This document shows, one piece after another, positions 6,059-36,390 of a DNA stretch of 64,000 nt. Below the pieces are notes generated by a model that was given only the letters and a program-made list of their open reading frames with translations, had not been told where the DNA came from and searched no databases. This DNA comes from Candidatus Glassbacteria bacterium (lineage in GTDB: Bacteria; Gemmatimonadota; Glassbacteria; GWA2-58-10): NCBI GenBank assembly GCA_963752515.1, contig CAVVYO010000002.1:21362-85361 (forward strand), written 5' to 3'. The translations under genes were made by a program, and so were the position numbers. Within the stretch, counting starts at the first letter, position 1, and each line of letters opens with the position of its first letter.

Positions 6059-6512
6059 CCGGGGGGAGGGAGGAAAACCTTTTCCAAAAGGTTTCCTCCC
6101 TCTCCCCGGGCCCCTCTCCTACCTTCCCAAACTTTTTCGCTAGTTTGCTGCTGGAGGTTGGACCTCCAGTCAGGATGGGCCTGCCAACATCGTAGGGGCC
6201 GGCCCCCGGGCCGGTCCGCCTTTGCCTGCGGGCGCGGCCTGCCGCGCCCCTACCGGCCAACCCGATCATCATCGGTCAAGCTCAAGCCGACCAGCCCGGG
6301 AAGCAGCGGTTGTGTTTTTGGAGGGGGGTGGCGGGGCGGTCTTTGGGCCGCGGCTGGAGGCAGGAGGGAGCGGTTTTTTATGAAGTACCCGCGGCGGCTG
6401 TTAAAGACCTCAGTGCAACTCCAGCTTCGCGGCCCTGCTGTAAAAGACTCTTGCTACTGGTCACAGCAGGAGAAAAATCCGCAGGATTTACGGGATTAGC
6501 AGCGGGCTGGAG
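6059..6512 (+). repeat. intergenic repeat family, long copy (type 2: H + K + nested palindromes + 3' module)
   Basis: H hairpin CCGGGGGGAGGGAGGAAAACCTTTTCCAAAAGGTTTCCTCCCTCTCCCCGG, then K (CCCAAACTTTTTCGCTAGTTTG). Shares GTAGGGGC...GCCCCTACCGGCCAACCCGA, CGGTCAAGCTCAAGCCGACCAGCCCGGGAAGCAGCGGT and GGGCCGCGGCTGGAGGCA with the copy at 35679-36390. Confidence 0.85.
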
Positions 6513-6651
6513 CTTCCCCCGGAACAGACGGATGAACCCTTCTTCCTGCTCCGAGGGTCAGCATGGCTCTTGACCTTTCCCCGCTGATTCGGTAGCATAA
6601 TAGCATCTAAAGTGGCAGTCACCAGTCCCTTCCCTGTCGGAGATGCCACCG

Positions 6652-9930: not shown

Positions 9931-10686
9931 TCAATCATCACCAATTCCATAAATTTCCCTTAATACGCCCAGTGCTTCACTCAAAGTTATGCGGCGCAAC
10001 CCCAGATCTGATAGATTCAAGGATGTTTCTTGTTTCATGGCTTGCAAAAATTTGCGAAAGTCTGTCTTGACTGAATCGGGAAGAGTTATTGCCTCGGTGG
10101 GATTGAGCAATTGATAGAGCTTGAAAACATCATTCTTGTGTTTGTTGACGTCATTGCTATGCGCGTTTTTTCTTCCGGATAAGTCGAGCCAGGCACGCGC
10201 TTTGAGAGGAATCAGATGAGTTGGCGCAACGACCGGCAGGCCTTCAAGTTCCTGTTTTCCAGAATGAATGAAGTGATAGTAGTCATTATCAAGGAGAATG
10301 GCGGATAGGCTGGAGATTTCTTCATCTGTAGGTATCGGTGTGAGATGACTCCCATCCGCAATATCAAGAATATCGGGCTTGCGGGAAAACAATTCCAGCA
10401 TCTCGGGATAGGCCTCATCTTGCGGCTTGAAGAACCGGTAAAACAGCCTTCTGCCAGTGCTTTTCTGGCGATTGTCGTACTTGCCATCACGGACAAAAGC
10501 CCAGAACGCTTTTAAAAATTTGTCATTCAAGACTTCTACACACAAGACAATATCCAAATCCTTGGTGGAACGGAACGACAGTCCGGCAGCTTCCATGGCA
10601 AGAGAACAGGCGGTTCCACCGATAAGAACGTAGCAATCGGATAATTCTGAAAAATGGGTCTTAAAATATTCGAGACCTCTTACCAT
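9931..10686 (-). CDS. nucleotidyltransferase, AbiEii/AbiGii-type toxin (type IV TA / abortive infection)
   Basis: 251 aa. LIGGTACSLAM...FRSTKDLDIVL fits the GG(T/S)A...(S/T)xDLD nucleotidyltransferase motif of the AbiEii (DUF1814) family. Low-GC relative to the flanks. The start overlaps the upstream gene stop by 7 nt. Confidence 0.75.
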   Translation of the reverse strand: MVRGLEYFKTHFSELSDCYVLIGGTACSLAMEAAGLSFRSTKDLDIVLCVEVLNDKFLKAFWAFVRDGKYDNRQKSTGRRLFYRFFKPQDEAYPEMLELFSRKPDILDIADGSHLTPIPTDEEISSLSAILLDNDYYHFIHSGKQELEGLPVVAPTHLIPLKARAWLDLSGRKNAHSNDVNKHKNDVFKLYQLLNPTEAITLPDSVKTDFRKFLQAMKQETSLNLSDLGLRRITLSEALGVLREIYGIGDD

Positions 10687-11606
10687 GATAGATTCCCCAT
10701 CATCTCTTCGAGAGCAGCCTGTACCCTCTCATCTGAGTTCTGTTGCAAGGTCAGGTAAAGGGAGAATTTATCAACCACGCCATCTTGGGCAAACATTTGC
10801 GGGGAATAGCTCCAGATTTCCATTTCACAGGCTTCATGGTCCTCCGGGGGCAGTTCGACAGTATCGCCCAGCCGCTTCAGCCAACTCCACTTCTTCAAAC
10901 TGATAGCATAAACCGGCCGATTGGGCGGTGACAGCAGGCTGTAGTCGGCCAAGGCAGACAACCCGGCTTTAATTCCCGGCCAGTGGTCGGCAGAGGGATC
11001 ACGTATCCAAAGCCGCTTCTTGACCGGGCTGCGCATGAATTCACGCGCTTTCTCCCACAATTCTCTTGAGGGCTCACTGAAACACAGCACTCGTTCCCGG
11101 CCTTCCGTGAGGACTTTACCCAAGCCAACAGATTCAAGTTCATCGAATGTCCGCGAGAGAGTCATTGACGAATAATCCATGTTGGCGGACAACCCAGAAG
11201 GGGTATACTTTTGCTTGGCGCCATGGATAATGGCATGCAGCACTACTGCCTGGGTTGATGGGCTGAACTTGGGGCTGCTGCCGCGAATCTTCTTGTAGTG
11301 CTCCCGCAGATCCACTCCAAGCATGGGCAAGTACATCTGATTGCCTGGTACCACAAACGGCACCTTGTGCTCGATCAAACGCTTACGGTTGTATGCGGCG
11401 ATTGCCTGGTGCACATAGATGAACAAAACACCGGCACCTTTTCTGGACCTGTGAGAGATCGGCTTGCAGACATTGGCGGGAGTCACCTGGTTTCGCCAGC
11501 GATCCACCATCAGACACCCCCAGGCATAGCGATCCCAAGAGACACACTTGGAAGAACAGATAGAAGCTGTTGAAGATAGTGCGGAAGCTCTGCTTCCCCC
11601 TTCCAA
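10680..11606 (-). CDS. putative cognate wHTH antitoxin/regulator (AbiEi-like)
   Basis: Sits immediately upstream of, and is translationally coupled to, the AbiEii-type gene. Winged-helix-like segment MDYSSMTLSRTFDELESVGLGKVLTEGRERV. The start is uncertain: an ATG at 11680 opens a 56-aa ORF in another frame (MNSTMQAFEALFSE...), so the N-terminus may be frameshifted. Confidence 0.5.
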   Translation of the reverse strand: MEGGSRASALSSTASICSSKCVSWDRYAWGCLMVDRWRNQVTPANVCKPISHRSRKGAGVLFIYVHQAIAAYNRKRLIEHKVPFVVPGNQMYLPMLGVDLREHYKKIRGSSPKFSPSTQAVVLHAIIHGAKQKYTPSGLSANMDYSSMTLSRTFDELESVGLGKVLTEGRERVLCFSEPSRELWEKAREFMRSPVKKRLWIRDPSADHWPGIKAGLSALADYSLLSPPNRPVYAISLKKWSWLKRLGDTVELPPEDHEACEMEIWSYSPQMFAQDGVVDKFSLYLTLQQNSDERVQAALEEMMGNLSW

Positions 11607-11921
11607 ATCCCGAGGGGAGGACCAGAGATATCAAGCGTCTCGCTGAATAGTGCCTCAAACGCTTGCATTGTGCTGTTCATATCGAGCGCCCCACGCTAAC
11701 GCTGAAATGCACGGTAACAAGGAGAGTGTTAATGAGCAAAAACAATGTTATATACTTGCCTTGCGCTCCGCAAGCTTCTCGTCCAGGTTACGGTGATGGT
11801 TGTTGATGCGGTCGCCTTGTGATCTTATTTTGTATCCTCCCGGGCGGCGTTCGCAACCTCAGCGCCGCCCCTTGCGTTGTGGTAAAGGATTGTCCCTGAA
11901 CGGTGATCCGGCATCCATCCC

Positions 11922-12005
11922 CAATCGATGAAAAGTTTGGAAGGGGGCCAGGGGGGAGCCCCAGGGGGAGCGGAAAAACTTTTTAAAAAGTTTTCCGCTC
12001 CCCCC
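11922..12005 (-). repeat. intergenic repeat family, short copy (K then H, inverted orientation)
   Basis: CAATCGATGAAAAGTTTGGAAGGGGGCC followed by GGGGGAGCGGAAAAACTTTTTAAAAAGTTTTCCGCTCCCCC. TATAAT at 12008-12013 follows directly. Confidence 0.8.
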
Positions 12006-12046
12006 TCTATAATGATTTTAGTGTCTTTCAGAAAGGTTTCCGCAAG

Positions 12047-12834: not shown

Positions 12835-12851
12835 CTGAGCAACTGCATTGT

Positions 12852-12975
12852 CCGGGGGGAGGGAAGAAAACCTTTTGAAAAAAAGGTTTTCTTCCTCCCC
12901 CCGGACCCCCCTTCTTCTTTCCCAAACTTTTTCGCTTGTTCAAGGCTGAATGGCGGGCAGCAGTCAGGAGCAGCG
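12852..12975 (+). repeat. intergenic repeat family, short copy (H + K + CAGTCAGGA segment)
   Basis: CCGGGGGGAGGGAAGAAAACCTTTTGAAAAAAAGGTTTTCTTCCTCCCCCCGG, then CCCAAACTTTTTCGCTTG, then GGCGGGCAGCAGTCAGGAGC. Starts 18 nt after the otsB stop. Confidence 0.85.
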
Positions 12976-14676: not shown

Positions 14677-14787
14677 TATCGCGCAGGTCCTTTCATGGGA
14701 TCTTTGGTTCTGCAACCGCGGCGAGGGTGCAGCTCATCTCCCGATCACATCGGGACACCCCGGAAGATGCGGCATGGCAAGGGGCGT

Positions 14788-18045: not shown

Positions 18046-19203
18046 ATGGGGACCAGGATTGCCTCGCGGGCGGCGGGGCTTCGCCAGTCGGCGATCCGCG
18101 CCATGACCCGGCTGGCGGTCGAGCGCGGCGGAGTCAACCTTTCGCAGGGCCTCTGCGACCTGCCGACCCCGGAAGTGGTGCGGCAGGAGGCCTGCCGGGC
18201 GATCGAGGAGGGGTGCAACACCTATGCGCCGATGAACGGCACCGCCGGGCTGCGCCGGGCGATCGCCGCCAAGCTGGAGCGTTTCAACCATCTGCGGGTC
18301 GATCCGGAGCGCGAGCTGACTGTCACCAGCGGGGCGACCGGGGCCCTGGCCTGCGCCCTGCTGACGCTGCTGGAGCCCGGGGAGCGGGTGCTCGCTTTCG
18401 AGCCGTTCTATGGCTATCACCTCAACCTGGCGCGCCTGCTGGGGTTCGGCACTGTCACCCTCCGGCTGCGGCGGCCGGACTGGGCGATCGATTTCGCGGA
18501 GCTGGAGCGGCTGCTGGCGGGCGGCACCGTGCGGGCGCTGCTGCTCAACACCCCGGCCAACCCCTGCGGCAAGGTGTTCCGCCGGGAGGAGCTGGAGTGG
18601 ATCGCCGCCCTGTGCCGGCGCTACGATATCATGGCGATCACCGATGAGATCTACGAGCACATCGTGTTCGATGGCCGGGAACACCTGAGCCTGGCCGCCC
18701 TGCCGGGGATGCAGGGGCGCACGGTGACCATCTCCGGTTTCTCCAAGACCCTGGCGATGACCGGCTGGCGGCTGGGCTATGTCGCCGGGCCCGCGGAGGT
18801 GATCGAAAAGCTCACGCTGATCTCGGACCAGCTCTACATCTGCGCCCCGCACCCGCTGCAGGCCGGGGTGGAGCGCGCCCTGCCGCTCCTGGAGGAAAAC
18901 TACTACCGCGAACTGCCCGCCCGTTACCGGGCCAAGCTGGACATCCTGGCCCCGGCCCTGGAACAGGCCGGTTTCGAGCCCCTGCCATTGGAGGGGACAT
19001 ATTTTCTGCTGGCCGGGTACGAAAAATGCTATGGAAAGCTCGGGTCGATGGCGGCCGCCGAGCGGCTGCTGACGGAGCGGCTGATCGCCGCGGTGCCGGC
19101 CGAGAGCTTCTTCTCCGACGGCCACGATCAGCCCTGGCTGCGCTTCTGCTTCGCCAAGGAGGACTGCGAGCTGGAACGCGCCGCCCGCCTGCTCGGAGGA
19201 TGA
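18046..19203 (+). CDS. class I/II PLP-dependent aminotransferase
   Basis: Internal ATG with GGAGGAG upstream. IRAMTRLAVERGGVNLSQGLCDLPTP, NTPANPCGKVF and the SGFSKTLAMTGWRLGY Lys motif. Confidence 0.85.
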   Translation: MGTRIASRAAGLRQSAIRAMTRLAVERGGVNLSQGLCDLPTPEVVRQEACRAIEEGCNTYAPMNGTAGLRRAIAAKLERFNHLRVDPERELTVTSGATGALACALLTLLEPGERVLAFEPFYGYHLNLARLLGFGTVTLRLRRPDWAIDFAELERLLAGGTVRALLLNTPANPCGKVFRREELEWIAALCRRYDIMAITDEIYEHIVFDGREHLSLAALPGMQGRTVTISGFSKTLAMTGWRLGYVAGPAEVIEKLTLISDQLYICAPHPLQAGVERALPLLEENYYRELPARYRAKLDILAPALEQAGFEPLPLEGTYFLLAGYEKCYGKLGSMAAAERLLTERLIAAVPAESFFSDGHDQPWLRFCFAKEDCELERAARLLGG

Positions 19204-19231
19204 TGCCCAATCCGACAGCAATGCTATTTTT

Positions 19232-19745
19232 CCGGGGAGCGGGAGGAAACCTTTTGAAAAAGGTTTTCCTCCCTCTCCCCGGACCCCTCTCCCACTTTCC
19301 CAAACTTTTTCGCAAGTTTGATGTGCAGGTGGGATCAGCATTTCAGGATGGGGAACAGTCTTTTGCTTTTCACCCCCAGCGCCCGGAACGGGCGCTCCGC
19401 GGCAGCAACTGGATGAGCTACTCTGTAGCAGCGGTTACAGAACTGGAAATACCATGGCAGGCAGTAGTGGAGGCAAGAACTGACTGGCAGATGCGCGTCA
19501 GCGCTGCCCACGCATCAGGGCAGCGTAATGATCCCGCGATTACAAGCTACTGGAAGAAGACTTCAGTGGTGGGCGAGTTTTGCGCCGCAAAGACTTTTGC
19601 TTCTTTTGGTCACAAAAGAAGAAAAACAATGACAATCAATGAGATAGCGGCATAGCCAGGAGTTTTCTGGCAGCCGGCCGTTCAAGGTGATTTTAGTGCC
19701 GCCGGCCGGCGAGTTTTGCGCCGCCAGGGCTCTTTCCCGGGCTGG
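19232..19745 (+). repeat. intergenic repeat family, long type-1 copy A (core 19232-19662 plus a partly duplicated 3' module)
   Basis: H 19232-19282, K 19283-19320, internal hairpin 19378-19396, GGCAGATGCGCGTCAGCGCTGCC, GGCGAGTTTTGCGCCGC, GTCA-loop hairpin 19600-19621, end ...GCATAGCCAGGAG 19662. A second GGCGAGTTTTGCGCCGC lies at 19707-19723. Confidence 0.9.
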
Positions 19746-19816
19746 AATTCTTGTACGGATGCTGTCATCGCGGCCATGAGATGAGCCCGGTTGTCCATTC
19801 CATGGACTGAAAGCCG

Positions 19817-21439
19817 ATGAAGAAAGCGATGGAAAAAGCCGAATCCCCGCGGGACCGCTTCAGTCGACTGCTGCCGGAGGCGCTGGTGCTGGCCGCGGCG
19901 CTGATCATCCGGGCGGCGTATTTCGCGTCCTGGCGCCATCATCCGTTGTTCGAGCCGCTGCTGCCCGGCTATGACATGACCCGCTTCCACCAGTGGGCGC
20001 AGGAGATCGCCGCCGGCAGGCTTTCGCCGCCGGGGACTTTCTACCAGGGACCGCTCTACCCCTACCTGCTGGGCGCGCTCTACGCCCTGCCCGGCCCGGA
20101 TGTCATCACTGCCGTGCTGTTCCAGCACCTGCTGGGCGCCGGGAGCGTGGCCCTCTGCTACCTGCTGGCGCGAAAGCTGTTCGGCCGGGGCCCGGCGCTG
20201 CTGGCGGCGGCGATGATGGCGCTCACCCCGATCTTTTTCTGCTACGAGGGACTGCTCAAGGCCGATACCCTGGTGACTTTCCTCGATCTGGGATTTCTGC
20301 TGGCCCTGGTGTCTTTCCGCCCGGGACAGCCCTGGCGCGGGGCGCTGACAGCGGGGCTGCTGCTCGGGCTGTCATCCCTGGCCCGGGCTAATGCCCTGGT
20401 GCTGCTGCCGCTGGGGATGTACTGGCTCAGTCGACAGAGCCGCCGGGAGGGGCTCGCCCGCGGCCGGGCGCTGCTGCCCGCTCTGCTCCTGGCCGGGACG
20501 ACCTTCCTGGTGATCGGCCCGGCGACTGTGCACAACCTGGTGCGGGGCAATAAGTTCGTTCTGGTGTCGGACAATTTTTCCGAGAACTGGCGGATCGGCA
20601 ACAGCGCCGGTTCGACCGGAGGCTTCTGCTACCCGGAAGGCCGGCTCCTGCCGGTGGGTTCCGGGGATTTCTGGCGGCTGCAGCTGAAGAAAACGGGCCT
20701 GCTGCTCGGCCACCGTGAGCAGCCGAACAATGTCGATTTCCTGCAGCTGCGCGAGGAGCTGCCGCTCTTGCGGGTGCCGCTGTTGTCCTGGGGCTTTTTC
20801 CTGGCTTTCGGGCTGGCCGGGGCGCTGCTGTACCGGGATCGGTGGCGGAAACTTTTGCCGCTCTATGCCTACCTGCTGCTGCTAAGCGCGGGCATTGTCG
20901 CTTTCTTTGTCACCAGCCGCTTCCGGCTGCCGCTCTGGCCGCCGCTGGTGATCCTTTCCGGGGCGGCCCTCTACCGGGTTTTTTCCGCAGCCATCGCGCG
21001 GCGCTATGCCCAGGCACTGGCGGTGGCCCTCCCGGCCGGGGCCCTGGCCGCGACGCTGATCCTCACCGCCCCGCGCACGATCGAGGGGCGCTATTTCGAC
21101 AATATGCTGCTGATCCACGAGCGACGGAGCGACCGCGAGGGGGCGATCCATCAGCTCCGGGCCAAGCTCGCCCATTACCCGGACGATGGCACCGCGCTCT
21201 GGCGGCTGGCATATTACCTGCATCTGAAGGGGGAGCGGCAGGAGCCGCTGCTGCTGCTGGAACGGCTGCTGGCGCTCCACCCCGACCACCCGCAACTGCT
21301 GCGGGAGGGCGGGCTGCTCTACCTGCGCCTGGGTGAGCGGTCGCGGGGACAGGCGCTGCTGGAGCGCTACCTGGAGCTCTCCCCCGCCGACCCGGACAGC
21401 CTGCGCCTGCGTGGGCTGATCACCGCGGGCCGCCCCTGA
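19817..21439 (+). CDS. GT39/ArnT-like membrane glycosyltransferase with C-terminal TPR repeats
   Basis: 540 aa. The N-terminal roughly 400 aa are polytopic membrane, resembling PMT_2/ArnT-type. The C-terminus carries TPR-like repeats (ALWRLAYYLHLKGERQEP...LERLLALHPDHP...). Confidence 0.7.
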   Translation: MKKAMEKAESPRDRFSRLLPEALVLAAALIIRAAYFASWRHHPLFEPLLPGYDMTRFHQWAQEIAAGRLSPPGTFYQGPLYPYLLGALYALPGPDVITAVLFQHLLGAGSVALCYLLARKLFGRGPALLAAAMMALTPIFFCYEGLLKADTLVTFLDLGFLLALVSFRPGQPWRGALTAGLLLGLSSLARANALVLLPLGMYWLSRQSRREGLARGRALLPALLLAGTTFLVIGPATVHNLVRGNKFVLVSDNFSENWRIGNSAGSTGGFCYPEGRLLPVGSGDFWRLQLKKTGLLLGHREQPNNVDFLQLREELPLLRVPLLSWGFFLAFGLAGALLYRDRWRKLLPLYAYLLLLSAGIVAFFVTSRFRLPLWPPLVILSGAALYRVFSAAIARRYAQALAVALPAGALAATLILTAPRTIEGRYFDNMLLIHERRSDREGAIHQLRAKLAHYPDDGTALWRLAYYLHLKGERQEPLLLLERLLALHPDHPQLLREGGLLYLRLGERSRGQALLERYLELSPADPDSLRLRGLITAGRP

Positions 21440-21468
21440 GACCGACCCTGCAACAAAGGCCGGGATTC

Positions 21469-21950
21469 CCGGGGGAGGGAGAAAACCTTTTGGAAAAGGT
21501 TTTCTCCCTCCCCCGGACCCCCTCTCTCTTTCCCAAACTTTTTCGATAGTTTGATGTGCAGGTGGCTCTATCAATCAGGATAAGCTATTCACGGAGCGAG
21601 AGAGTAGTTCTTTGCCTTTCACCCTCAGCGCCCGATCAGGGCGCTCCGCGGCAGCAACTGTATGAGCTACACCGAGGCAGCGGTTACAGCACTCATCATC
21701 CCATGATGAACTGTAGGGGAGGCAAGAACCGACTGGCAGATGCGCGTCAGCGCTGCCCAACCTGATGGGTAGCGTAAAGATCGCACGATTACCAGCGGCC
21801 AATTGAAGATTATCAGTGGTGGGCGAGTTTTGCGCCGCACAGACTTTTGGTCCTTTTGGTCACAAAAGGACAAAAAAAATAAAGAAGTTGGAGCATAGCA
21901 GGGAGACCGAGAATCACCGGCAGGATGCCCTGCCCCCCAGGCTCTTTCCC
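21469..21950 (+). repeat. intergenic repeat family, long type-1 copy B
   Basis: Collinear with copies A and C. H 21469-21516, K, hairpin 21627-21645, GTCA-loop hairpin 21850-21871, end GCATAGCAGGGAG 21905. It is followed by GAATCACCGGCAGGATGCC, which also occurs at 36372-36390. Confidence 0.9.
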
Positions 21951-22001
21951 CTTGGTATAGCCTCTGACAGGTAAATCTGTAATGGTAGAAATGGTATCAA
22001 G

Positions 22002-23637
22002 ATGAACCCTGGAGATACCCCCTTGCCCCGCTTGCTGGCGCTGCTGCTGCTGCTGCCGGTCGCGGCTCCGGCCGCCCGGCTCCCGGAGCGCCCGAACATC
22101 CTGCTGCTCACTGTCGACAGCTTCCGGCCCGACCGGCTGGGCTGCTACGGCCGCGAGGGAGCCCATACCCCGGCGATCGACTCGCTGGCCGCCCGCGGGG
22201 TGCTGTTCGAGCGGGCCTATGCCACCGCCGCCTGGACCAACCCGGCCAATGTCAGCACCCTGACCGGGCTTTATCCCGCGGTGCACGGGGTCCAGCGACG
22301 GGATGACGGTGTCCCCGGGGGGCTGGACACTTTCCTGGAGGCCCTGGCGCGGGCGGGCTACCTGGCGCCGGAACTCAACTACCTGTTCCCGGAGCCCAAC
22401 TACCGCAATCTCGGATTCAGTCCACATCCCGGCCGGAATCTGGAAAAATTCCTGGCGGAGTACCAGGATACCACCTGGTTCGCCTGGTACCATTTCCATG
22501 GGCCGCACCTGCCCTACGATCCGCCCGAGGAGTTCCGCCGCCTGTTCCTGCCGTCCGGCGGCGAAAAATCGCTGGCCGCGGTGCGGGAGAATATCCTGCT
22601 GCCGCGGGGCGAGCGGAAGTTCTCGCCTCGCGAGCAGGAGCTGGTGCGGGCGCTCTATGCTGCCGAGCTGGCGGCCCAGGACCGGGAACTGGCGGCGGTG
22701 TTCCATGCCCTGGACAGTCTAAGGCTGCGCCGGGGGACAATCGTGGTCCTCACCGCCGACCACGGCGAGGAGCTGTTCGACCATGGCTGGCTGGGGCATG
22801 CCTCCACCAGCCTGAGCGGCACCCTGTTCGAGGAGCTGATCCATGTCCCGCTGATCCTGAGTTGGCCGGGCGAGCTGCCGCAAGGGCAAAAAGTGAGCGC
22901 CCTGGCCCAGTCGGTGGACCTGGTCCCGACCCTGCTGGCCCTGGCCGGGCTGGAGCTCGATTTCCCCTGCCAGGGGGTGAGTCTGTTGCCCCTGATGCGT
23001 GGGGAGCGCGGGGAAGTTCGGGATGAGATCTTCTGCGAGAGCAGTGTCTGCGGCTACCAGTGTCCGGCCGGGGAGGACCCGGTCTGGCTGCGGGCGGTCC
23101 GTGCGGGCGCACTGGAAGCTGATCCAGACGGTCCCGCCCGGGGGCGCCTCCCCGCGGTATGCCCTCTACGACCTGGCGCGTGATCCCCTCGAGCGGCGCG
23201 ACCGCTCTGTCGAAGCGCCGCTCGAGCTGCAACGGATGCAGGGTCGGCTGGCGGCGCGGATTTTCGAGAACGTGCGCCTGGCGCGGCAGCTGGAGCGCGA
23301 GGCTCCTGTCCCGGCCGCGGCGGTGGAGTTCGCCGGGCCGGTGGAGGTGCTCGCCCCGAACGAGGGCGAGCGGGTGTCGTTCCAGGCTGTCGCGGGCCAG
23401 GTCACCATCCGCTGGAGCGGCCCGCCGCAGGCCGGCTACCGGCTGGAGTACCGGGTGGGCCAGGGCAAGCACCGCCTGGAGGGCGCGTTCGACTTGACCG
23501 GCAACAGCGAAAGCTTCGGGCCGTTCAACCGGGTGTTCTGGCGCTCGCTGACCCTCTACAACCCGTTCAGCTTCCGGGTGGTCCCGGCCGGACGGCCCGA
23601 GCTGGCCAGCCCCTGGCGGACTTTCACCTTCGAGTAA
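22002..23637 (+). pseudogene. sulfatase-like (alkaline phosphatase superfamily) enzyme split by a frameshift near 23103-23110
   Basis: Track ORF 22002..23183 carries the N-terminal sulfatase-like fold (NILLLTVDSFRPDRLGCYG...). Track ORF 22999..23637 carries the C-terminal WKLIQT...YALYDLARDPLERRD region. The reading frame changes between AVR and HWKL. The protein has a signal peptide. Confidence 0.7.
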
Positions 23638-23673
23638 TTTATTTCCATCGGCGGACTTTCGTTCACCGGGTGA

Positions 23674-24915
23674 ATGTTTTATATTGCGGCAAAATTCTCC
23701 CGCTGCAGCTTTTTCCCGCCGACACACCGGGCGAACCACGCGCGCGAGGACCCCGTTTTGAGCGACAAGCTGAAGATCCTCGGGGTGGTGGGGGCCAGGC
23801 CCAATTTCATGAAGATCGCCCCGCTGGCCGAGCGCCTGCGCGCCGAGCGCGACTGGTGCGGGTTCACCCTGGTCCACACCGGGCAGCACTATGACCGCCG
23901 GATGAACGAGGTCTTTTTCGCCGAGCTGGGGATCGATCCGCCGGAGGTGTTCCTGGGGGTGGGCTCCGGCAGCCATGCCTCCCAGACCGCCCGGATCATG
24001 CTGGCCCTCGAGCCGGTGCTGCTGGAGCAGGCTCCCCACCTGGTGCTGGTGGTCGGCGATGTCAACTCGACCGTGGCCGGGGCGCTGGTGGCCGCCAAGC
24101 TCGGGATCGCGGTGGCCCATGTCGAGGCCGGCCTGCGCAGTTTCGACCGCCGGATGCCCGAGGAGCTCAACCGCATCCTCACCGATAGCTTGAGCGAGCT
24201 GCTGTTTACCCCCAGCCGGCTGGCCGATGCCAACCTGCGGCGCGAGGGGGTGCCCCCGGAGCGGATCTGCCTGGTGGGCAACATCATGATCGATACCCTG
24301 GTGCGGCGCTTGGAGCAGGCCCGCGCGCTTCGCCCCTGGGAGGGGCTGGACCTGACCGAGGGCGGCTACGGGCTGGTGACCCTGCACCGGCCGGCCAATG
24401 TCGATGACCCGGCGGTGCTGGCCGAGCTGGTCGGGGCGCTGGCCGAGCTGTCGCGCGAGCTGCCGCTGGTGTTTCCGGTCCATCCCCGCACCCGGGCGGC
24501 GCTCGAACGCGAGGGGCTGCTGACGGCGCTGGAGGCGGCCGCTGGGATGCGGCTCGCCGGGCCGCTGGGCTACCTGGAGTTCCTGGCCCTGATGCGCGGC
24601 TCGCGGCTGGTGCTCTCCGACTCCGGCGGGATTCAGGAAGAAAGCTCCTACCTGGGGATTCCCTGCCTGACCCTGCGCGAGAACACCGAGCGCCCGGAGA
24701 CCATCGCGCAGGGGACCAACCGGCTGGTGGGGCGCGACCGGGGAAGAATTCTGGCCGGGGCGCGTCAGGCCTTGCGCGATGGAGGCAGCCGCGGCGGCGA
24801 GCTGGAGTTCTGGGATGGCCGGGTCACCGGCCGAATTGTCGAGGAGCTGCGGCGCCGCATGGGATATTTCCTCACGCCGGCCGAGCGCCGGCTCGACCCG
24901 GAGCGGGCCCGATGA
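23674..24915 (+). CDS. wecB: UDP-N-acetylglucosamine 2-epimerase (non-hydrolysing) family
   Basis: KILGVVGARPNFMKIAPL, HTGQHYD, GSGSHA.QTA, VLVVGDVNST, HVEAGLRSFDRRMPEE.NR. The likely true start is TTG 23758 (GAGGA 7 nt upstream) rather than ATG 23674. Confidence 0.9.
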   Translation: MFYIAAKFSRCSFFPPTHRANHAREDPVLSDKLKILGVVGARPNFMKIAPLAERLRAERDWCGFTLVHTGQHYDRRMNEVFFAELGIDPPEVFLGVGSGSHASQTARIMLALEPVLLEQAPHLVLVVGDVNSTVAGALVAAKLGIAVAHVEAGLRSFDRRMPEELNRILTDSLSELLFTPSRLADANLRREGVPPERICLVGNIMIDTLVRRLEQARALRPWEGLDLTEGGYGLVTLHRPANVDDPAVLAELVGALAELSRELPLVFPVHPRTRAALEREGLLTALEAAAGMRLAGPLGYLEFLALMRGSRLVLSDSGGIQEESSYLGIPCLTLRENTERPETIAQGTNRLVGRDRGRILAGARQALRDGGSRGGELEFWDGRVTGRIVEELRRRMGYFLTPAERRLDPERAR

Positions 24916-26537
24916 TCGCCACCGCTGTCGCCGGGACCGGCAACTGGGGCAAGAACCTGGTCCGCACGTTCCAGCGCCTGGAGGACAGCGGGCTGCGCTG
25001 GCTCTGCGACTCCGACCATCGCGCGCTGGAGGCCGCGGGACGCGGCTGCCCCGGCGCCCGGCTTACCGGCGATTTCGCCGAGTTGCTGCGCGATGAGGCG
25101 CTGGAGGCGGTGGCCCTGGCCACTCCGGCCGAGAGCCACTACCGCCTGGCCCGCGCGGCGCTGGAGGCCGGCAAGCACGTTTTTGTCGAAAAGCCGCTGG
25201 CCCTGTCCGCCCCCGAGGCCGAGGAGCTGGAGCGCCTCTCCCGCGAGCGCGGCCGGGTGTTGATGGTCGGCCACCTGCTGATCTACCACCCGGCGGTGAC
25301 CGCGCTCAAGGCGATGGTCGACACGGGCGAGCTGGGAAAGATTTTCTACATCCACACCCAGCGGGTCAACCTCGGGGTGGTGCGACGGGATGAGAACGCC
25401 CTCTGGAGCCTGGGCCCGCACGATCTGTCGATCATCCTCGAGCTGCTGGGCCATCCGCCGGTGGAGGTGTCCGCCCGCGGGGCCTGCTATCTGCGCCCGG
25501 GGATCGAGGATGTCGTGTTCCTGACCCTGCGCTTCGCGGATGGGGCGATGGCCCATGTCCAGCTCTCCTGGCTCGATCCCCATAAGGAGCGCAAGGTCAC
25601 CGTGGTCGGCAGCCGCAAGATGGTGGTGTTCGATGACATGCAGGCCGCCGAGAAGCTCCGGGTCTACGACAAGGGGGTCAGTGTCAGCCGCGACTATGAT
25701 TCCTACACCGACCTGCTCACCCTGCGCGAGGGCGATATCCTGATCCCGCAACTCAGGATGGAGGAGCCCCTGCAACTGGAATGCCGCCACTTCCTGGACT
25801 GTGTCGCCGGGCGCGCGGAGTGCCGCAGCTCCGGCCGGGCGGGAGTGGCGGTGGTCAGGGTGCTCCAGGCCGCCACCGAGTCGCTCCGGCGCGCGGGAGA
25901 GCCGGTCCCCATCTGCGAGGAGAGCCATGCAGGAAAACAGACCGCCAGTAAGTTCTTCGCCCATCAGAGCGCCTACATCGATGCGGGCGCGGTGATCGGC
26001 GAGGGCACCCGCATCTGGCATTTCTGCCACGTGATGGCCGGGGCCCGGATCGGGGCCGGCTGCAACCTCGGCCAGAATGTCGTGGTCCACCCGACCGCGG
26101 TGGTCGGCGCTGGGGTCAAGATCCAGAACAATGTCTCGGTCTATGACCGGGTGATCCTCGAGGATGATGTTTTCTGCGGGCCGAGCATGGTCTTCACCAA
26201 TGTGGTCAACCCCCGCTCCCACACCCCGCGCAAGCATGAATACCAAGAGACCCTGGTGCGCCGCGGGGCCTCGATCGGGGCCAACGCCACCGTGGTCTGC
26301 GGTCACGTGATCGGCCGCCACGCGTTTGTCGGGGCCGCGACCCTGGTCACCAGGGATGTCCCGGATTTCGGACTGGTCTACGGGGTCCCGGGAAGGCTGC
26401 GCGGCTGGATCTGCAAGTGCGGGGTGCGGCTCCCGCTGGGCCTGGAGCCGGAAGGAGTCGAGCAGGCCGCCTGCGCCGACTGCGGCCGCCGCTACACCCG
26501 CCGCGGCCTGACTGTCGAGCTGCCCGGCGAGGACTGA
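24912..26537 (+). CDS. bifunctional fusion: Gfo/Idh/MocA oxidoreductase (WbpB-like) + hexapeptide N-acetyltransferase (WbpD-like)
   Basis: N-terminal roughly 330 aa: GTGNWGKN Rossmann motif, EKPLA, Gfo/Idh/MocA C-terminal fold. C-terminal roughly 200 aa: left-handed beta-helix repeats (IGEGTRIWHFCHV..IGAGCNLGQNV..) and the W.C.CG...C..CG tail. ATGA overlap with wecB. Confidence 0.8.
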   Translation: MIATAVAGTGNWGKNLVRTFQRLEDSGLRWLCDSDHRALEAAGRGCPGARLTGDFAELLRDEALEAVALATPAESHYRLARAALEAGKHVFVEKPLALSAPEAEELERLSRERGRVLMVGHLLIYHPAVTALKAMVDTGELGKIFYIHTQRVNLGVVRRDENALWSLGPHDLSIILELLGHPPVEVSARGACYLRPGIEDVVFLTLRFADGAMAHVQLSWLDPHKERKVTVVGSRKMVVFDDMQAAEKLRVYDKGVSVSRDYDSYTDLLTLREGDILIPQLRMEEPLQLECRHFLDCVAGRAECRSSGRAGVAVVRVLQAATESLRRAGEPVPICEESHAGKQTASKFFAHQSAYIDAGAVIGEGTRIWHFCHVMAGARIGAGCNLGQNVVVHPTAVVGAGVKIQNNVSVYDRVILEDDVFCGPSMVFTNVVNPRSHTPRKHEYQETLVRRGASIGANATVVCGHVIGRHAFVGAATLVTRDVPDFGLVYGVPGRLRGWICKCGVRLPLGLEPEGVEQAACADCGRRYTRRGLTVELPGED

Positions 26538-26558
26538 AAAACTAAAGATGGGTGTTCA

Positions 26559-26983
26559 CGGGGGAGGGAGGAACCCTTTTGAAAAAGGGTTCCTCCCTCC
26601 CCCGGACCCCCACCCGCTTCCCCAAACTTTTTCGAAAGTTTGATGTGCAGGTGGGATCGGCATTTCAGCACTGTGGACATTCTTGTCTTTCGCCCAAAGG
26701 CGGCTTTAGCCGCCACCCCGCGGCGCAACTGTATGAGCTACATAGATGCAGCGGTTACAAAGTGGCGATCCTATGACAGGCGTGATGAGAGGCAAGAACT
26801 GACCGGCAGATGCGCGTCAGCGCTGCCCACCCTGATGGGTAGCGTTTCGACACCGCGATTACAAGCGGTTAATTAAAAATCACTATTGGCCGGCGAGTTT
26901 TGCGCCGCACAGACTCTTGCTTCTTCTGGTCACAGAAGAAGAAACATAATGACCAATCAAAGAGATAGCGGCATAGCCAGGAG
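26559..26983 (+). repeat. intergenic repeat family, long type-1 copy C
   Basis: Collinear with A and B. H 26559-26605, K, hairpin 26699-26714 (GGCGGC-ttta-GCCGCC), GTCA-loop hairpin 26920-26941, end GCATAGCCAGGAG 26983. Confidence 0.9.
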
Positions 26984-27007
26984 TCTCGGATAGCAGGCGG
27001 GGTAAAA

Positions 27008-28390
27008 GTGGCTCATGCGCCGGAGACCGGCGAAAGGAAACCCTTGAGCGAACGCCGCACACCGGCGGCCGATGAAAAAAACCCGCCGCGGGTGATCTAC
27101 CTGATAGCCCTGGAACTGGTGGTCGGCAACGCGATTTTCGACAACCAGGTCAAGCGGCTGCTGCTGCGGCTCTCAGTCGCGGGACGGGCGCGGATCACCC
27201 TGGTGGTGCTGCTGCCCTGGCTGGAGCTGACCCGCCGCGGAGTCTACTCCAACTTCCGCCATCACGCCCGCGCGCTGGAGTCATTGCGGGCGGAGCTCTC
27301 CGCGGGCGGGATCGAACTGCGGCTGGTGCGGACCCTCTACCCCTCGGCCTTTTTCCACATGCGGGCCCCGGGGCTGGCCTGGTTCAGCCTGCTGGCGGTG
27401 CCCGCGCTGGTGCGGGAGATCCTCCGCGCCCGGGCCGGGCTGGTGCACTGCCGTTACTACTATGCGACTTTCGCCGCGCTGGCGGCCTCCACGCTGCTGC
27501 CGCGGGGGCCGCGGGTGATTTTCGATGTGCGCACCCTGCTCCCCGAGCAGGGGATTGTCAATCATACCTGGGGCGAGCGCTCGGCCGCCTATCGCTGCTG
27601 GAAGCGGATCGAGGGCTGGATGCTGCGCCGGGCCGGGCGGGTGGTGTCGGTCTCCCCGGCGATGACCGCCCGGCTGGAGCGCGAGGCCCCCGGGGTGCGG
27701 GTGGAGACTATCCCCAATTTTGTCGATCTGGGCCGTTTCCGCCCGGACCCGCAGGCCCGCGCCGCGGTCCGGGGGGAGTTGGGGCTGATGCAGGAGCGGC
27801 CGGTGCTGGTGTTCTCCGGCACCCTCGGCGGGCGCTACCCGGCCGAGCGGATCGCCGAGTGCGCGGCGGCGTTCTGCCGGGCGCTGGGGCCGGAGAGTTT
27901 CTTCCTGGTGCTCACCAGCTCGGATGAAAAGCGGCTGGCCCCGCTGGCCGGGGCCCTGGCCGCGGAGGGTCTCGCGCGGGAGCGCGATTGGCGGGCGCTG
28001 GGCTGCCCGCCGGAAGAGGTCCCGCGCTACCTGGCCGCCGCCGATTATGGGCTGCTGGCCCTGGCCGATTTCCTGACCGCGGAGACTTTCCTGCCGCTCA
28101 AGTTCGGCGAATATCTGGCTTGCGGGCTGCCGATCCTGACCCACCCGGCCAACTCCGAGCTGACGCGGCTGGTGGCCGAACATGGGGTCGGGCTGGCCCT
28201 CGACCCGGAGGCGGACCTCGCCGCGACCGGGGCGCGCCTCACTGCGGAAGTGGCCTCGATGCGCGAGCGCTGCCTGCAGCTGGCCCGCGAGCAGTTCGAC
28301 CTGGAGCGTTTCGCCGGGCGCTACGCCCGCATTTACGATGAACTCAGTGGCCGCGCATCGACTGCGGCCGGGCAGGAGAGCCTGCGATGA
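27008..28390 (+). CDS. GT4-family glycosyltransferase
   Basis: C-terminal Glycos_transf_1-like region (VLVFSGTLGGRY..., E.F.PLKFGEYLACGLPIL). GTG start directly after repeat copy C; exact start uncertain. Confidence 0.75.
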   Translation: MAHAPETGERKPLSERRTPAADEKNPPRVIYLIALELVVGNAIFDNQVKRLLLRLSVAGRARITLVVLLPWLELTRRGVYSNFRHHARALESLRAELSAGGIELRLVRTLYPSAFFHMRAPGLAWFSLLAVPALVREILRARAGLVHCRYYYATFAALAASTLLPRGPRVIFDVRTLLPEQGIVNHTWGERSAAYRCWKRIEGWMLRRAGRVVSVSPAMTARLEREAPGVRVETIPNFVDLGRFRPDPQARAAVRGELGLMQERPVLVFSGTLGGRYPAERIAECAAAFCRALGPESFFLVLTSSDEKRLAPLAGALAAEGLARERDWRALGCPPEEVPRYLAAADYGLLALADFLTAETFLPLKFGEYLACGLPILTHPANSELTRLVAEHGVGLALDPEADLAATGARLTAEVASMRERCLQLAREQFDLERFAGRYARIYDELSGRASTAAGQESLR

Positions 28391-32149: not shown

Positions 32150-32610
32150 GAGCTGAAGAAAGGATTTATCCACGAAGCACACGAAGGTTCACGAAGAGTT
32201 TTCTTGGTGTGCCTAGCGCGTGTGATGAACTGCGAAGCCCGGCGCCTGGGCAGTGGCCGCTGAAAAAGACCACACCCCCCGTCGGCTGTCGCCGCCACCC
32301 CTCTGTTTAGAGGGTGTGATGAACTCAGGAGTGGGAAAGAACACCACCCCCGGTGTCCCCCTTTGGTAAGGGGGATTGTTCCGGCTTCGGCCCGGGCAAT
32401 GGCGCAACTGGTTGATTGCTTTGCTGTTTAATGCTGCCGGGGGTGTGTAGTCTTTTATCGGTGGCCGCGGGAGGCCCGGAGTCCGCGGTAGGGGCGATGC
32501 CTACCAAGGTGAGGCCCGACATCCAGTAACTTTCGAAAAAGTTTGGGAAGGTGGGAGGGGGGCCGGGGGAGGGCGGAAACCTTTTCCAAAAGGTTTCCGC
32601 CCTCCCCCGG
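32150..32610 (-). repeat. intergenic repeat family, long mosaic copy with H/K in inverted orientation
   Basis: K (reverse) 32524-32562 and H 32563-32610 abut the next gene. Read on the minus strand, GATGTCGGGC and GTAGG..CCTAC follow K as in copy 52870. Contains hairpin TCCCCC-tttggtaa-GGGGGA (32356-32375) and the duplicated GTGTGATGAACT. Confidence 0.8.
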
Positions 32611-32659
32611 AAAAAGATCCTCATCTGCTGTTGTCATCCAGGGATGAAAGAGGCCGCGG

Positions 32660-35650: not shown

Positions 35651-35678
35651 TACCGATTTGACGACAAAGGCGGCTTGT

Positions 35679-36390
35679 CCGGGGGGAGGGCGAAAACCTT
35701 TTGAAAAAGGTTTTTCGCCCTCCCCCCGGGCCCCCCTTCCACTTTCCAAAACTTTTTCGATAGTTTGGCTCAGTAGGTTGGACAGCGAATTTGGGTAAGA
35801 CCGAGGCCAGGGCGGTTTGTTCAGGGACGGAGTGGAGTCTTTCGGGCCGCGGCTGGAGGCCCGGGGTTAGGTGTAGGGGCGTCCGGCCGGACGCCCCTAC
35901 CGGCCAACCCGACCAACAGCGGTCAAGCTCAAGCCGACCAGCCCGGGAAGCAGCGGTGGTGTCTTTGGGATGGGGGTGGCGGCGGTTTTCGGGCCGCGGC
36001 TGGAGGCAAGGGTCAGCGATGGGAGAGCCACGCAATTTCCATCGTGGCCGACATGGAATGACACGGGTCGGCAGGCCATGCGTTGCAGCGCCAGGGATGG
36101 CGCGAAACGCGGCGACCACCGAAGGAGCGCCTGACTTCCTCGGGCACACCGCCGTCTATTCAAGACCTTGATGTTGTTTCAGCTTCGCGGCCTTGGCACC
36201 AAGAGACTTTTGCTTCTTTTGGTCACAAAAGAAGAAACATAATGAAAATCAAAGAGATAGCTGCATAGACAGGGATTTTCAGACAGCAGGTCGCGATAAA
36301 AGTGGTCCATGCGCTTTTGGTCACGACAGAACAAAAAAATAGAGAAGCTACGAGAACGGCAGGAGGCAGGGGAATCACCGGCAGGAGTGC
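35679..36390 (+). repeat. intergenic repeat family, longest type-2 copy
   Basis: H 35679-35729 and K 35730-35772. Perfect palindrome GTAGGGGCGTCCGGCCGGACGCCCCTAC. TTCGGGCCGCGGCTGGAGGC occurs twice (about 35841 and 35989). 3' module with GTCA-loop hairpin 36213-36234, then a second degenerate 3' module to about 36390. Confidence 0.85.

Follow-up and report, generated by a model that had tools for sequence, protein, structure and literature searches.

Do three similar stretches of intergenic DNA, here called A, B and C (Table 1), make up a single discrete element, or has each been put together from smaller parts? A sequence-only reading of the window (the whole 64-kb stretch of DNA analysed) had described them as collinear copies of about 430 nt. 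Alignment and nhmmer bear this out: the copies, each of about 430-450 nt, align from end to end and score E-values of about 1e-150 to 1e-158 with a profile built from those same three copies.

Three related spacers

The core (see below) is 73-79% identical between pairs of copies. Conserved positions are more clustered than expected by chance: the longest unbroken invariant stretch is 25 columns, while permutations average 10.4 (p 0.0006). The conserved blocks listed earlier were all located in their given places, the one correction being that the GCGATTAC block reads ACGATTACCAGC in B. This copy also carries an extra 13 nt inserted 3' of GATGTGCAGGTGG.

A, B and C are genuine non-coding repeats, as had been proposed. 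They have no reading frame in common, their variable columns lack codon periodicity (43/32/32), and every frame is broken because of indels of 13, 2 and 1 nt. The genes that follow them were confirmed as GT39/PMT_2, sulfatase and GT4. Since the genes adjoining the three copies are mutually unrelated, the unit has been copied between intergenic sites rather than duplicated along with a gene. A short-read contig assembled independently from the same strain has one end at window position 19747, 12 nt past the second GGCGAGTTTTGCGCCGC module in A, and the other at 21494, within the 5' hairpin of B; ends at or near modules are the outcome that dispersed repeats would give.

Table 1. Positions in the window of the three spacers, their modules and related features
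Feature	Position	Strand	Method	Details
Copy A, composite spacer	19232-19662	+	alignment; nhmmer E 9e-158 (A+B+C profile)	aminotransferase gene stop 19203; GT39 gene start 19817
Copy B, composite spacer	21469-21905	+	alignment, nhmmer	GT39 gene stop 21439; sulfatase gene ORF start 22002
Copy C, composite spacer	26559-26983	+	alignment, nhmmer	oxidoreductase/acetyltransferase gene stop 26537; GT4 gene ORF start 27008
5' module of A	19231-19320	+	inverted repeats, folds	hairpin 19231-19283 (25-nt arms); mirror-repeat tail CCCCTCTCCCACTTTCCC 19284-19301; AAACTTTTT 19302-19310; small AT hairpin reaching 19320
5' module of B	21469-21552	+	inverted repeats	perfect 23-bp hairpin 21469-21516; tail 21518-21534; AAACTTTTT 21535-21543
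5' module of C	26559-26641	+	inverted repeats	perfect 22-bp hairpin 26559-26604; tail 26607-26623; AAACTTTTT 26624-26632; small hairpin CAAACTTTTTCGAAAGTTTG
A/B/C-specific core	19333-19571 (A), 21566-21821 (B), 26655-26891 (C)	+	block location, core-only nhmmer	
Block GATGTGCAGGTGG	19320, 21553, 26642	+	pattern search	
Internal hairpins	19378-19396 (A), 21627-21645 (B), 26699-26714 (C)	+	pattern search	
Block CCGCGGC(A)GCAACTG(G/T)ATGAGCTAC	19397, 21646, 26718	+	pattern search	
Block GCAGCGGTTACA	19428, 21677, 26748	+	pattern search	
39-nt block GGCAAGAAC...GCTGCCCA	19472, 21721, 26791	+	pattern search	
Short module GGCGAGTTTTGCGCCGC	19572-19588, 19708-19724, 21822-21838, 26892-26908, 53532-53548	+	pattern search, BLAST pairs	
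3' module of A	19590-19662	+	inverted repeats, pattern search	
Terminal hairpins	19600-19621 (A), 21850-21871 (B), 26920-26941 (C)	+	pattern search	
Other 3' modules	21840-21905, 26910-26983, 36204-36293, 36314-36386, 53540-53632, 6440-6478	+		
Composite spacer D	35667-36390	+	BLAST pairs	
Composite spacer E	52866-53640	+	BLAST pairs, pattern search	variant terminal hairpin 53563-53586
Mini-core	14687-14738	-	nhmmer E 4e-4	

Modules within and beyond the three copies

The 430-nt stretch is modular, not the one discrete element implied earlier. In each copy a 5' hairpin with its C-rich mirror tail is followed by the core and then by a 3' module consisting of a GTCA hairpin and an A-rich part. 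The flanking modules and several core sub-blocks are also found alone elsewhere, in other combinations and orientations. Within this one window of one genome there are about 14 copies of the 5' module, in both orientations and in some cases adjoining unrelated genes, seven of the 3' module, five of GGCGAGTTTTGCGCCGC and four of the internal-hairpin module.

The portion restricted to A, B and C is only about 190-250 nt long: when the window was searched by nhmmer using the core alone and no filters, with A, B and C as the source of the profile, there was no other full-length match. The core of A contains the internal hairpin, blocks CCGCGGCAGCAACTGGATGAGCTAC and GCAGCGGTTACA, an invariant 39-nt block (19472-19510), a hairpin GCGCTGCCC...GGGCAGCG and GCGATTACAAGC; the 39-nt block holds the second GTCA loop reported earlier, GCGC-GTCA-GCGC. 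Even core sequence has a relative elsewhere. The mini-core, a 50-nt relative of block GATGAGCTAC...GCAGCGGTTACAGAAC...ATCCCATGA followed by GCGATACAAGC, scores E 2e-13 once the profile contains the mini-core itself. Unlike A, B and C, it is on the minus strand: it sits between two convergent genes, directly 3' of the stop of a TPR gene on that strand, and is thus downstream rather than upstream of a gene.

The 3' module of A reads AGACTTTTG, the hairpin CTTCTTTTG-GTCA-CAAAAGAAG, an A-rich run and GAGATAGCGGCATAGCCAGGAG. Wherever it occurs (7/7) this module is the final one ahead of a + strand gene, among them hemerythrin and CAAX-protease genes. Its placement bears on the idea that the copies are separate genes for small or medium ncRNAs, each transcribed from a promoter in its 5' module and ending at the GTCA hairpin. 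The defined unit length, the ends conserved in three copies and a stable terminal hairpin kept through three compensatory changes would all fit such a gene. However, no sigma-70-type promoter or U-tract terminator was found in A, B or C, the terminal hairpin being followed by a run of A; the similarity between C and D1 passes the supposed end and continues to the start codon (26911-27007 versus 36204-36301); and a 3' module immediately abuts the start codon at 36391. We therefore consider an ncRNA gene very improbable.

Three other long spacers (6055-6520, 35667-36390 and 52866-53640) have ends like those of A, B and C and different middles. Spacer D combines a 5' module with an unrelated middle, which recurs at 6230-6362, and with a tandem pair of 3' modules extending as far as the TTG at which a GT/DUF218 gene starts. 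Spacer E has a 5' module of the A/B/C type, an internal-hairpin module at 53248-53289 (hairpin 53266-53284), GGCGAGTTTTGCGCCGC at 53532 and the variant terminal hairpin, located where it had been described; its middle is unlike that of A, B and C and contains GTAG/CTAC palindromes.

The closest-related pair of copies changes along the unit, so that relatedness is mosaic. The 5' modules of B and C are 86% identical (family D13), the internal hairpin is common to A and B and replaced in C, and one type of 3' tail is found in A, C and D1, another in B, D2 and E. From this mosaic similarity we infer recombination between modules. We favour, at about even confidence, a reading of A, B and C as paralogous composite intergenic spacers, BIME/BOX-like mosaics of reused modules. 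Recombination or gene conversion between common flanking modules, rather than a transposase, would have spread the copies and kept them alike.

Might the copies instead be non-autonomous mobile elements, whether MITE-like, REP/RAYT-like or IS200/IS605 PATEs, served by a transposase elsewhere in the genome? They are multicopy at unrelated intergenic sites; unrelated phyla carry many copies of the 5' module, which is found in either orientation, a pattern suggestive of horizontal spread; REP-type GTAG...CTAC palindromes lie in neighbouring spacers; and the short-read assembly breaks at or beside modules. Against this, A, B and C lack terminal inverted repeats and target-site duplications, the modules appear independently of one another, a Pfam scan of 42 proteins from this one window revealed no transposase, TnpA, TnpB or IscB domain, and plasmid and phage collections gave no match to the core. 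Mobile elements thus seem an unlikely explanation. The PATE variant, in which the right end retains a guide-RNA scaffold, was put forward by the sequence-only reading. The ends of IS200/IS605 elements carry hairpins similar to each other, whereas the left and right hairpins here are dissimilar in sequence, and no Rfam family, those of transposon-associated guide RNAs included, is matched by A, B or C. PATE identity failed on every feature examined (ends, repeats, transposase, Rfam), and, like the single element, it is not supported; the non-coding nature of the copies and the maintenance of their hairpins stand.

Pairing, folding and possible roles

Double substitutions had been taken as an argument for selection on structure. 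The hairpins are indeed maintained: across 45 local pairs 95.6% of cells are paired, only 8 of 500 shuffles score as high as the real alignment, and the large 5' hairpin retains its pairing despite substitutions. Only four pairs are compensatory, however, three in the terminal hairpin and one in the internal hairpin, while 34 are invariant and six are broken in one copy. Compensatory changes in the core are real but few, and covariation there is thin. With most predicted helices invariant, the covariation argument therefore depends on two simple hairpins, each compared across three sequences. By fold z-scores the sense strand (-2.4, -3.3, -3.2) folds somewhat better than the antisense (-1.5, -2.7, -1.6), and one pair is G-C in A and G-U in B and C, the antisense equivalent of which would be an A-C mismatch.

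These results can be set against the proposal that the core serves as a cis-regulatory leader, a dedicated structured RNA of riboswitch- or antitermination-like type, coordinating three transcription units of one glycan-biosynthesis cluster, with generic flanking modules supplying only a terminator and a translation-initiation context. All three full cores are in sense orientation immediately 5' of glycan genes within 7.7 kb, hold long conserved blocks (25 and 18 invariant columns), retain their local hairpins and fold better in sense, and a possible closing helix, GCGGC(A)GCAA / TTGCGCCGC, is predicted in 3/3 copies. Yet the pairs are mostly invariant, the minimum-energy folds of A, B and C differ from each other beyond the local hairpins, core sub-blocks occur elsewhere (one of them 3' of a gene on the other strand), Rfam offers no match, and no homologue of the core was found in genome, metagenome or viral collections with the patterns tried. 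A dedicated leader RNA is in our estimation improbable, if less so than a mobile element. The earlier suggestion that the copies are cis-acting leaders of some kind is a fair possibility.

If the copies are mosaic spacers, the unit would be transcribed on the + strand as an intercistronic region or, probably, as a long 5' leader to the glycan gene that follows. Lying right after the upstream stop codon, the 5' module could be a barrier, either a terminator or a structure protecting the 3' end, while binding or stability signals may reside in the conserved hairpins of the core and in the 3' hairpin plus A-rich tract, giving a common post-transcriptional input to three glycan genes. Block conservation, hairpins kept through change, the lack of coding signal and sense-strand folding are suggestive of function. 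The invariant 39-nt and 18-nt blocks, and the single glycan cluster holding all three full copies, would suit a dedicated regulatory RNA as well as a mosaic.

A triple helix may add strength to the proposed barrier. The hairpin has a purine-rich 5' arm and a pyrimidine 3' arm, of which the tail is a mirror copy, and tail and arm covary. Read against the parallel complement of the purine arm, the tail agrees at 13/16 positions in A, 13/15 in B and 11/14 in C. Such an order, purine-pyrimidine-pyrimidine, is that of an intrastrand triplex, making the module a possible triple-helix repeat. Many copies of it occur in an Armatimonadota metagenome-assembled genome (MAG) and in Desulfovibrionaceae, the conserved parts being the hairpin apex (AAACCYTTT..AAAAGGKTT) and the end, CCCAAACTTTTT.

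Comparison with known systems

IS200/IS605 PATEs and the TnpB/IscB guide RNAs (omega RNA, HEARO) are, like A, B and C, non-coding, multicopy, hairpin-bearing units of a few hundred nt, the differences being those given above. Polysaccharide leader RNAs (JUMPstart/ops with RfaH, the EAR of Bacillus eps, LoaP leaders and UpxY-dependent Bacteroides 5' UTRs) are similarly long non-coding sense regions 5' of glycan-biosynthesis genes, at several loci per genome. Here, in contrast, there is neither an Rfam match nor a NusG-paralogue domain among the window proteins scanned against Pfam, and the flanking modules adjoin non-glycan genes too.

BoxC, PIT and TMECO are intrastrand triplex motifs (Hoyne et al. 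2000, as cited in Holder et al. 2015, PMC4666352). The 5' module likewise comprises three consecutive homopurine/homopyrimidine blocks on one strand with short loops between them, and is G/C-rich, multicopy and intergenic in several bacterial groups; one of its strands could potentially form a purine-motif triplex and the other a pyrimidine-motif triplex. It runs from a purine arm through a pyrimidine arm to a pyrimidine mirror, a topology of class III on this strand and of class I on its complement, whereas TMECO, with the order pyrimidine-purine-purine, belongs to class II (Holder et al. 2015, PMC4666352). Arms are 8-20 nt long compared with 9 nt in TMECO (PMC4666352), and the apex and module end are, unlike in TMECO, conserved. 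TMECO is reported in Proteobacteria, chiefly enterobacteria (Holder et al. 2015, PMC4666352), whereas the 5' module is found in Desulfovibrionaceae, the Armatimonadota MAG and the present genome.

The BIMEs of enterobacteria, which contain REP sequences, and BOX of Streptococcus pneumoniae show no sequence similarity to the modules described here. The composite is also far longer, at about 430-450 nt, its core has been seen only three times so far, and its host is an uncultured bacterium, probably a relative of Gemmatimonadota: the closest LepA, at 77% identity, comes from a MAG labelled Gemmatimonadales. In organisation they are alike: non-coding and strictly intergenic, built of a few hairpin-forming modules in varied order and orientation, present in many copies per genome and frequently placed right after stop codons. 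The GTAG...CTAC palindromes in spacers neighbouring A, B and C extend the likeness to REP.

Copies A, B and C and their modular construction

The three intergenic copies A, B and C, each of about 430 nt on the + strand, align from end to end as first proposed, from the base of the long hairpin to ...GCATAGCCAGGAG. A profile made from these same three copies retrieves them with nhmmer E-values of 9e-158 (A), 6e-152 (B) and 7e-151 (C), and pairwise identity in the core, the middle portion of the unit, is 79% for A-B, 76% for A-C and 73% for B-C. The conserved blocks and hairpins listed in the sequence-only reading were all found in place, with the one exception that B has ACGATTACCAGC, and the variant hairpin at 53563-53586 is present as claimed. 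Invariant columns cluster: the longest run is 25, where permutation gives on average 10.4 (p 0.0006), and the five longest runs total 76 compared with 39. A coding origin was ruled out, as the earlier reading had also held. The copies have no common reading frame because of indels of 13, 3, 2 and 1 nt, which break every frame, and three-base periodicity is absent from the variable columns (43/32/32). The alignment, the clustered conservation and the lack of a shared frame therefore show A, B and C to be real, non-coding and unevenly conserved copies.

Repeat search (families D1-D7 and D18-D19), together with all-against-all BLAST of the intergenic regions, resolves the unit into modules. The first 95-130 nt, comprising the long hairpin, the C-rich tail and then CCCAAACTTTTTCG.AAGTTTG, occur about 14 times in 64 kb by repeat and profile search, and the latter finds this 5′ module in both orientations in the window (see table). 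The closing 90 nt or so, the 3′ module, contain AGACTYTTG, a GTCA-loop hairpin, an A-rich run and a GGAG-containing tail; all seven instances lie on the + strand, with no further module between them and the next gene. The genes that follow include hemerythrin, CAAX-protease and GT/DUF218, the module abutting the TTG start of the last. Parts of the core recur too: the sub-block GGCGAGTTTTGCGCCGC occurs five times in the window, the block TTTGCCTTTC.CCC-AGCGCCC-loop-GGGCGCT-CCGCG is also found in spacer E, and a 50-nt mini-core lies between two convergent genes, hence downstream of a gene, not upstream. In place of the CTACA and TTACA of A, B and C, the mini-core reads CTGCA and TTGCA, the change being identical in both copies of the direct motif. 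About 190-250 nt have so far been seen in A, B and C alone.

Repeat modules and palindromes of the window, with upstream stop and hairpin start where a 5′ module follows a gene
Feature	Position	Strand	Stop/hairpin start	Context
5′ module	6055-6145	+		
5′ module	12850-12942	+	12834/12853	
5′ module of A	19231-19320 (from 19220 by repeat and profile search)	+	19203/19233	3′ of aminotransferase gene, 5′ of GT39/PMT_2-TPR gene
5′ module of B	21469-21552 (from 21456 by repeat and profile search)	+	21439/21469	5′ of sulfatase gene
5′ module of C	26559-26641 (from 26545 by repeat and profile search)	+	26537/26558	3′ of GFO/IDH-hexapeptide gene, 5′ of GT4 gene
5′ module	35667-35783	+	35650/35680	spacer D
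5′ module	52866-52956	+	52841/52871	spacer E
5′ module	54586-54709	+	54564/54592	
5′ module	11884-12007	-		
5′ module	32527-32615	-		
5′ module	49947-50058	-		
5′ module	58584-58713	-		
5′ module, hairpin only	8782			
5′ module, tail only	4102			
5′ module, tail only	53639			
50-nt mini-core	14687-14738	-		between two convergent genes; related to centre of A, B and C
REP-like palindrome	6190-6255			long spacer
REP-like palindrome	32486-32506			long spacer
REP-like palindrome	35873-35900			long spacer; perfect 28-nt GTAG...CTAC, GTAGGGGCGTCCGGCCGGACGCCCCTAC
REP-like palindrome	53177-53196			long spacer

The long spacers at 6055-6520, 35667-36390 (D, with two tandem 3′ modules, D1 and D2) and 52866-53640 (E) have the same end modules with other middles, including GTAG...CTAC palindromes; across spacers A/B/C, D, E and a further one, G, the ends are held in common and the middles are unlike. 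Whether spacer E could join A, B and C as a further structural homologue was considered, and this was rejected because its alignment is confined to its two ends. Relatedness is itself a mosaic. In the 5′ module B is nearest to C (86%), in the 3′ tail one type is found in A, C and D1 and another in B, D2 and E, and the internal hairpin is common to A and B. The simplest account would be exchange between the flanking modules, which are abundant, through recombination or gene conversion. The system consists of short multicopy modules, in varied order and orientation, that are found only between genes. In the likeliest reading, to which we give about even odds, the three copies are full-length members of a BIME/BOX-like mosaic repeat of intergenic DNA, and a long leader is transcribed from them.

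Relatives, flanking genes and the question of mobility

In the PATEs of IS200/IS605 elements, similar subterminal hairpins at both ends are recognised by one Y1 transposase. An element of this type, retaining a guide-RNA-like scaffold, had been suggested for the copies, and it fails in its testable features. Their 5′ hairpin (GGGGGAGGGAGG...CCTCCCTCCCCC, with arms of 22-25 nt) and 3′ hairpin (CTTCTTTTG-GTCA-CAAAAGAAG) show no similarity to each other, and a Pfam scan of 42 proteins of the window, itself 64 kb of a 272-kb contig, gave no transposase-type domain. Exact-match look-ups of two window proteins returned no record. Neither an inverted repeat linking the left and right ends of A, B or C nor a target-site duplication in their flanks was found, so that both hallmarks of a MITE are missing. 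The genes flanking the three copies are mutually unrelated, and the unit has therefore been copied on its own between intergenic sites; that a transposase drove this copying is improbable, and we grade it below the other alternative, a dedicated regulatory RNA, considered with the hairpins below.

Searches for known signals gave little. Rfam 15 at gathering thresholds produced no matches in the whole window, and an E-value scan of 19100-27100 produced just generic microRNA-model hairpin matches on the 5′ hairpin, far below threshold. No tRNA or tmRNA was found. Counts of sigma-70 promoters and U-tract terminators were not above those of shuffled sequence, with none within the copies; inspection by eye of the tail and the GGCGAGTTTTGCGCC block for promoters of the sigma-54, ECF and Bacteroidetes types gave spacings that did not fit, and these motifs were dropped.

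The homologue collection that the earlier reading called for, carried out with nhmmer and database searches, gave no relative of the core. The invariant core 23-mer GGCAGATGCGCGTCAGCGCTGCC had no matches in genome, viral and metagenome collections, and of 78 metagenome matches to the core 18-mer GGCGAGTTTTGCGCCGCA none was upheld by nhmmer at E 0.001, a looser cut-off yielding one weak 38-nt match (locus L111, E 0.008). BLAST of plasmid and phage collections returned nothing similar to A, B or C, and a profile search of 363 loci (more than 2.8 Mb) detected the 5′ module alone and no core. Nothing relevant was found in the literature on the tail sequence or on Gemmatimonadota repeats.

All three copies do lie just upstream of GT39, sulfatase and GT4 genes, as originally described. 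The window has a G+C content of 66.5% and its genes are mainly on the + strand, the rest of the glycan cluster comprising further glycosyltransferases, an asparagine synthase, an epimerase/dehydratase and a WecA-like transferase; an NYN-domain protein (a predicted RNase) is encoded within it at 43810-45168. The spacers of 450-760 nt between the genes of the cluster bear on its transcription and rearrangement. The sulfatase ORF (22002-23673 region) is short, at 393 aa, and the next 490 nt are 70% G+C, with two ORFs tested there giving no Pfam match; the region could hold a frameshifted or decayed gene or one that goes unrecognised. Elsewhere (9931-11606, - strand), the gene of an AbiEii-type nucleotidyltransferase toxin and the ORF upstream of it, whose family is unknown, overlap and are likely a type IV toxin-antitoxin pair, and the promoter region of the pair holds a reversed 5′ module. 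Two adjacent stretches at 58866-60792, about 1 kb apart and 72-86% identical (repeat families D9, D15 and D17), probably represent paralogous genes for ABC ATPases of the oligopeptide type, the second having ABC_tran and oligo_HPY domains.

The host is a diderm, since it has an OEP-family gene (54836-56317), and has no close sequenced relative. The GT39 protein has its best non-self match at 52% identity and Hcp its best match at 70%, and LepA is 77% identical to that of a MAG labelled Gemmatimonadales; none of the repeat modules was found in this closest LepA relative. The sole cluster mate of the GT39 protein is from the same strain, on a 1.7-kb Logan contig (L304) of run ERR10755943, an independent short-read assembly. 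It corresponds to window 19747-21494 at 99.94% identity, and its ends fall 12 nt past a GGCGAGTTTTGCGCCGC module and within the 5′ hairpin of B. The repeats document an unusually dense modular vocabulary in a poorly sampled bacterial lineage.

Hairpins of the core

For the sense strand RNAalifold predicts 92 pairs, 8 with a double change and about 20 broken in one copy, and for the antisense strand similar numbers. A count restricted to seven local helices, with 45 pairs and three sequences only, gave 34 invariant pairs, 4 compensatory, 1 one-sided (G-U or G-C) and 6 broken in one copy. Three of the compensatory pairs are in the terminal hairpin (A 19600-19621, in the 3′ module) and one is in the internal hairpin (A 19378-19396); 95.6% of the cells of these 45 pairs are paired, and the observed covariation was matched by 8 of 500 column shuffles. 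A little support is added by the terminal hairpin, which keeps its pairing with differing stems across seven module copies, and a little more by the internal hairpin of spacer E, AGCGCCCC-TCC-GGGGCGCT. The sense-strand folds are moderately more stable than shuffled sequence (z of -2.4, -3.3 and -3.2), with weaker values of -1.5, -2.7 and -1.6 for the antisense. Pairing kept through change and better folding of the sense strand suggest that the hairpins are maintained, probably in sense RNA.

The claim that pairing survives where sequence differs stands for the local hairpins, although most pairs are invariant and the minimum-energy folds of the three copies disagree beyond those hairpins; GCGGC(A)GCAA / TTGCGCCGC is a candidate closing helix for the core. 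The broader idea of a single structured RNA or ssDNA element is only partly supported: it draws on the non-coding nature of the copies and their maintained hairpins, but the modular build and the disagreement of the minimum-energy folds speak against it. That the core is a dedicated regulatory RNA we think unlikely. There is a general trap here: intergenic repeats that are dispersed also preserve their palindromes, so compensatory changes confined to some simple hairpins of a repeat are not enough to identify a structured RNA gene.

The 5′ module and comparison with known systems

The triplex-type 5′ module may matter more than A, B and C themselves, and is the part most worth an experiment. 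Relatives were found in other genomes via a pattern derived from the tail and then a gapped pattern, and there too the architecture is multicopy (loci L166 and L305-L363). The Armatimonadota MAG SKW107 has at least 36 loci (36/60 among the matches listed), and others are in Pseudodesulfovibrio karagichevae, Desulfovibrio caledoniensis, several Nitratidesulfovibrio species and UBP15 UBA6099. All have a purine-rich 5′ arm, a pyrimidine-rich 3′ arm, a turn of 1-5 nt and then a tail mirroring the 3′ arm, and invariably terminate in CCCAAACTTTTT. Read in parallel, the tail complements the purine arm (G to C, A to T), as in GGGGGAAGGGGAGAGGGAAA with CCCCCATCCCCTCTCCCT and GGGGGCGGGGAAGAAA with CCCCCACCCCTTCTTCC. 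At 54640-54690, the hairpin and mirror tail of one module are parted by two tandem GGGATGCCTTCCCCCC copies, in what looks like insertion or slippage at the turn.

The tail matches 352 of the 432 positions in the purine arms of 36 distinct copies, and in 34 of these copies the mirror orientation is better than the direct one. The tail scores 8.18 within copies compared with 6.38 +/- 0.21 for permuted tails (0/20000), a difference inflated by the shared descent of the copies. Tracking of arm by tail is also seen within the window set alone (p 0.00015) and in 10 long-arm copies of other genomes, mostly Desulfovibrionaceae (0/20000), shared descent again making both results look stronger, and is absent in the short-arm set (p 0.14). 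Since we know of no templated mutational process by which mirror repeats would track an inverted repeat, the mirror tail points to selection.

The module has the three blocks of an intrastrand triplex motif, namely purine strand, Watson-Crick pyrimidine partner and pyrimidine mirror, joined by short loops. In layout it matches the class III pyrimidine-motif intrastrand triplexes, and its complement the purine-motif class I (classes as defined by Holder et al. 2015, PMC4666352). According to the same paper, neutral pH disfavours runs of C+.G-C triples, and RNA does not form triplexes of the purine motif. The form adopted may be purine arm - loop - pyrimidine arm - turn - mirror pyrimidine strand - AAACUUUUU. 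The 3′ GTCA hairpin was considered as a second triplex element and rejected, its flanks by eye not being mirror repeats.

By our ORF calls, the large hairpin starts 19-30 nt past the upstream stop in seven window copies (see table), after a short linker in which CAAAG(G/A) is frequent. By a rough gene call, 79 of 81 modules in other genomes are intergenic, facing gene 3′ ends 82 times and 5′ ends 34 times. Proximity to stop codons and the bias towards 3′ ends favour a putative role at transcript ends. The module could be a triplex-reinforced transcription terminator or a structure protecting mRNA 3′ ends, and the core of A, B and C a lineage-specific regulatory leader added to it. Unrelated phyla share the conserved module, which lies mostly where genes end. 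The full proposal, of a selected and self-contained triple-helix terminator or 3′-end protector onto which the leader was built, strikes us as doubtful. Triple helices stabilise some eukaryotic and viral RNAs, and the 5′ module, if the proposal is true, would be their bacterial counterpart. A long purine-pyrimidine-pyrimidine mirror element is in any case common to Desulfovibrionaceae, an Armatimonadota MAG and the host genome; its three-way covariation is among the clearest comparative evidence one might hope for of a selected triplex-capable sequence in bacteria, and it is open to direct test with oligonucleotides and reporter assays.

The repeat family is new by sequence and of a kind already known. 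Distinct multicopy modules, variation in order and orientation, and intergenic confinement liken A, B and C to BIME and BOX repeats. A REP/RAYT system combines a GTAG tetranucleotide beside a short palindrome with an associated RAYT gene; here GTAG...CTAC palindromes occur in neighbouring spacers but not at the ends of A, B or C, and the 64-kb window contains no RAYT gene. Among intrastrand triplex motifs, the BoxC/PIT/TMECO motif of E. coli has 9-nt stems and the order pyrimidine-purine-purine (PMC4666352), opposite to the purine-pyrimidine-pyrimidine order of the 5′ module.
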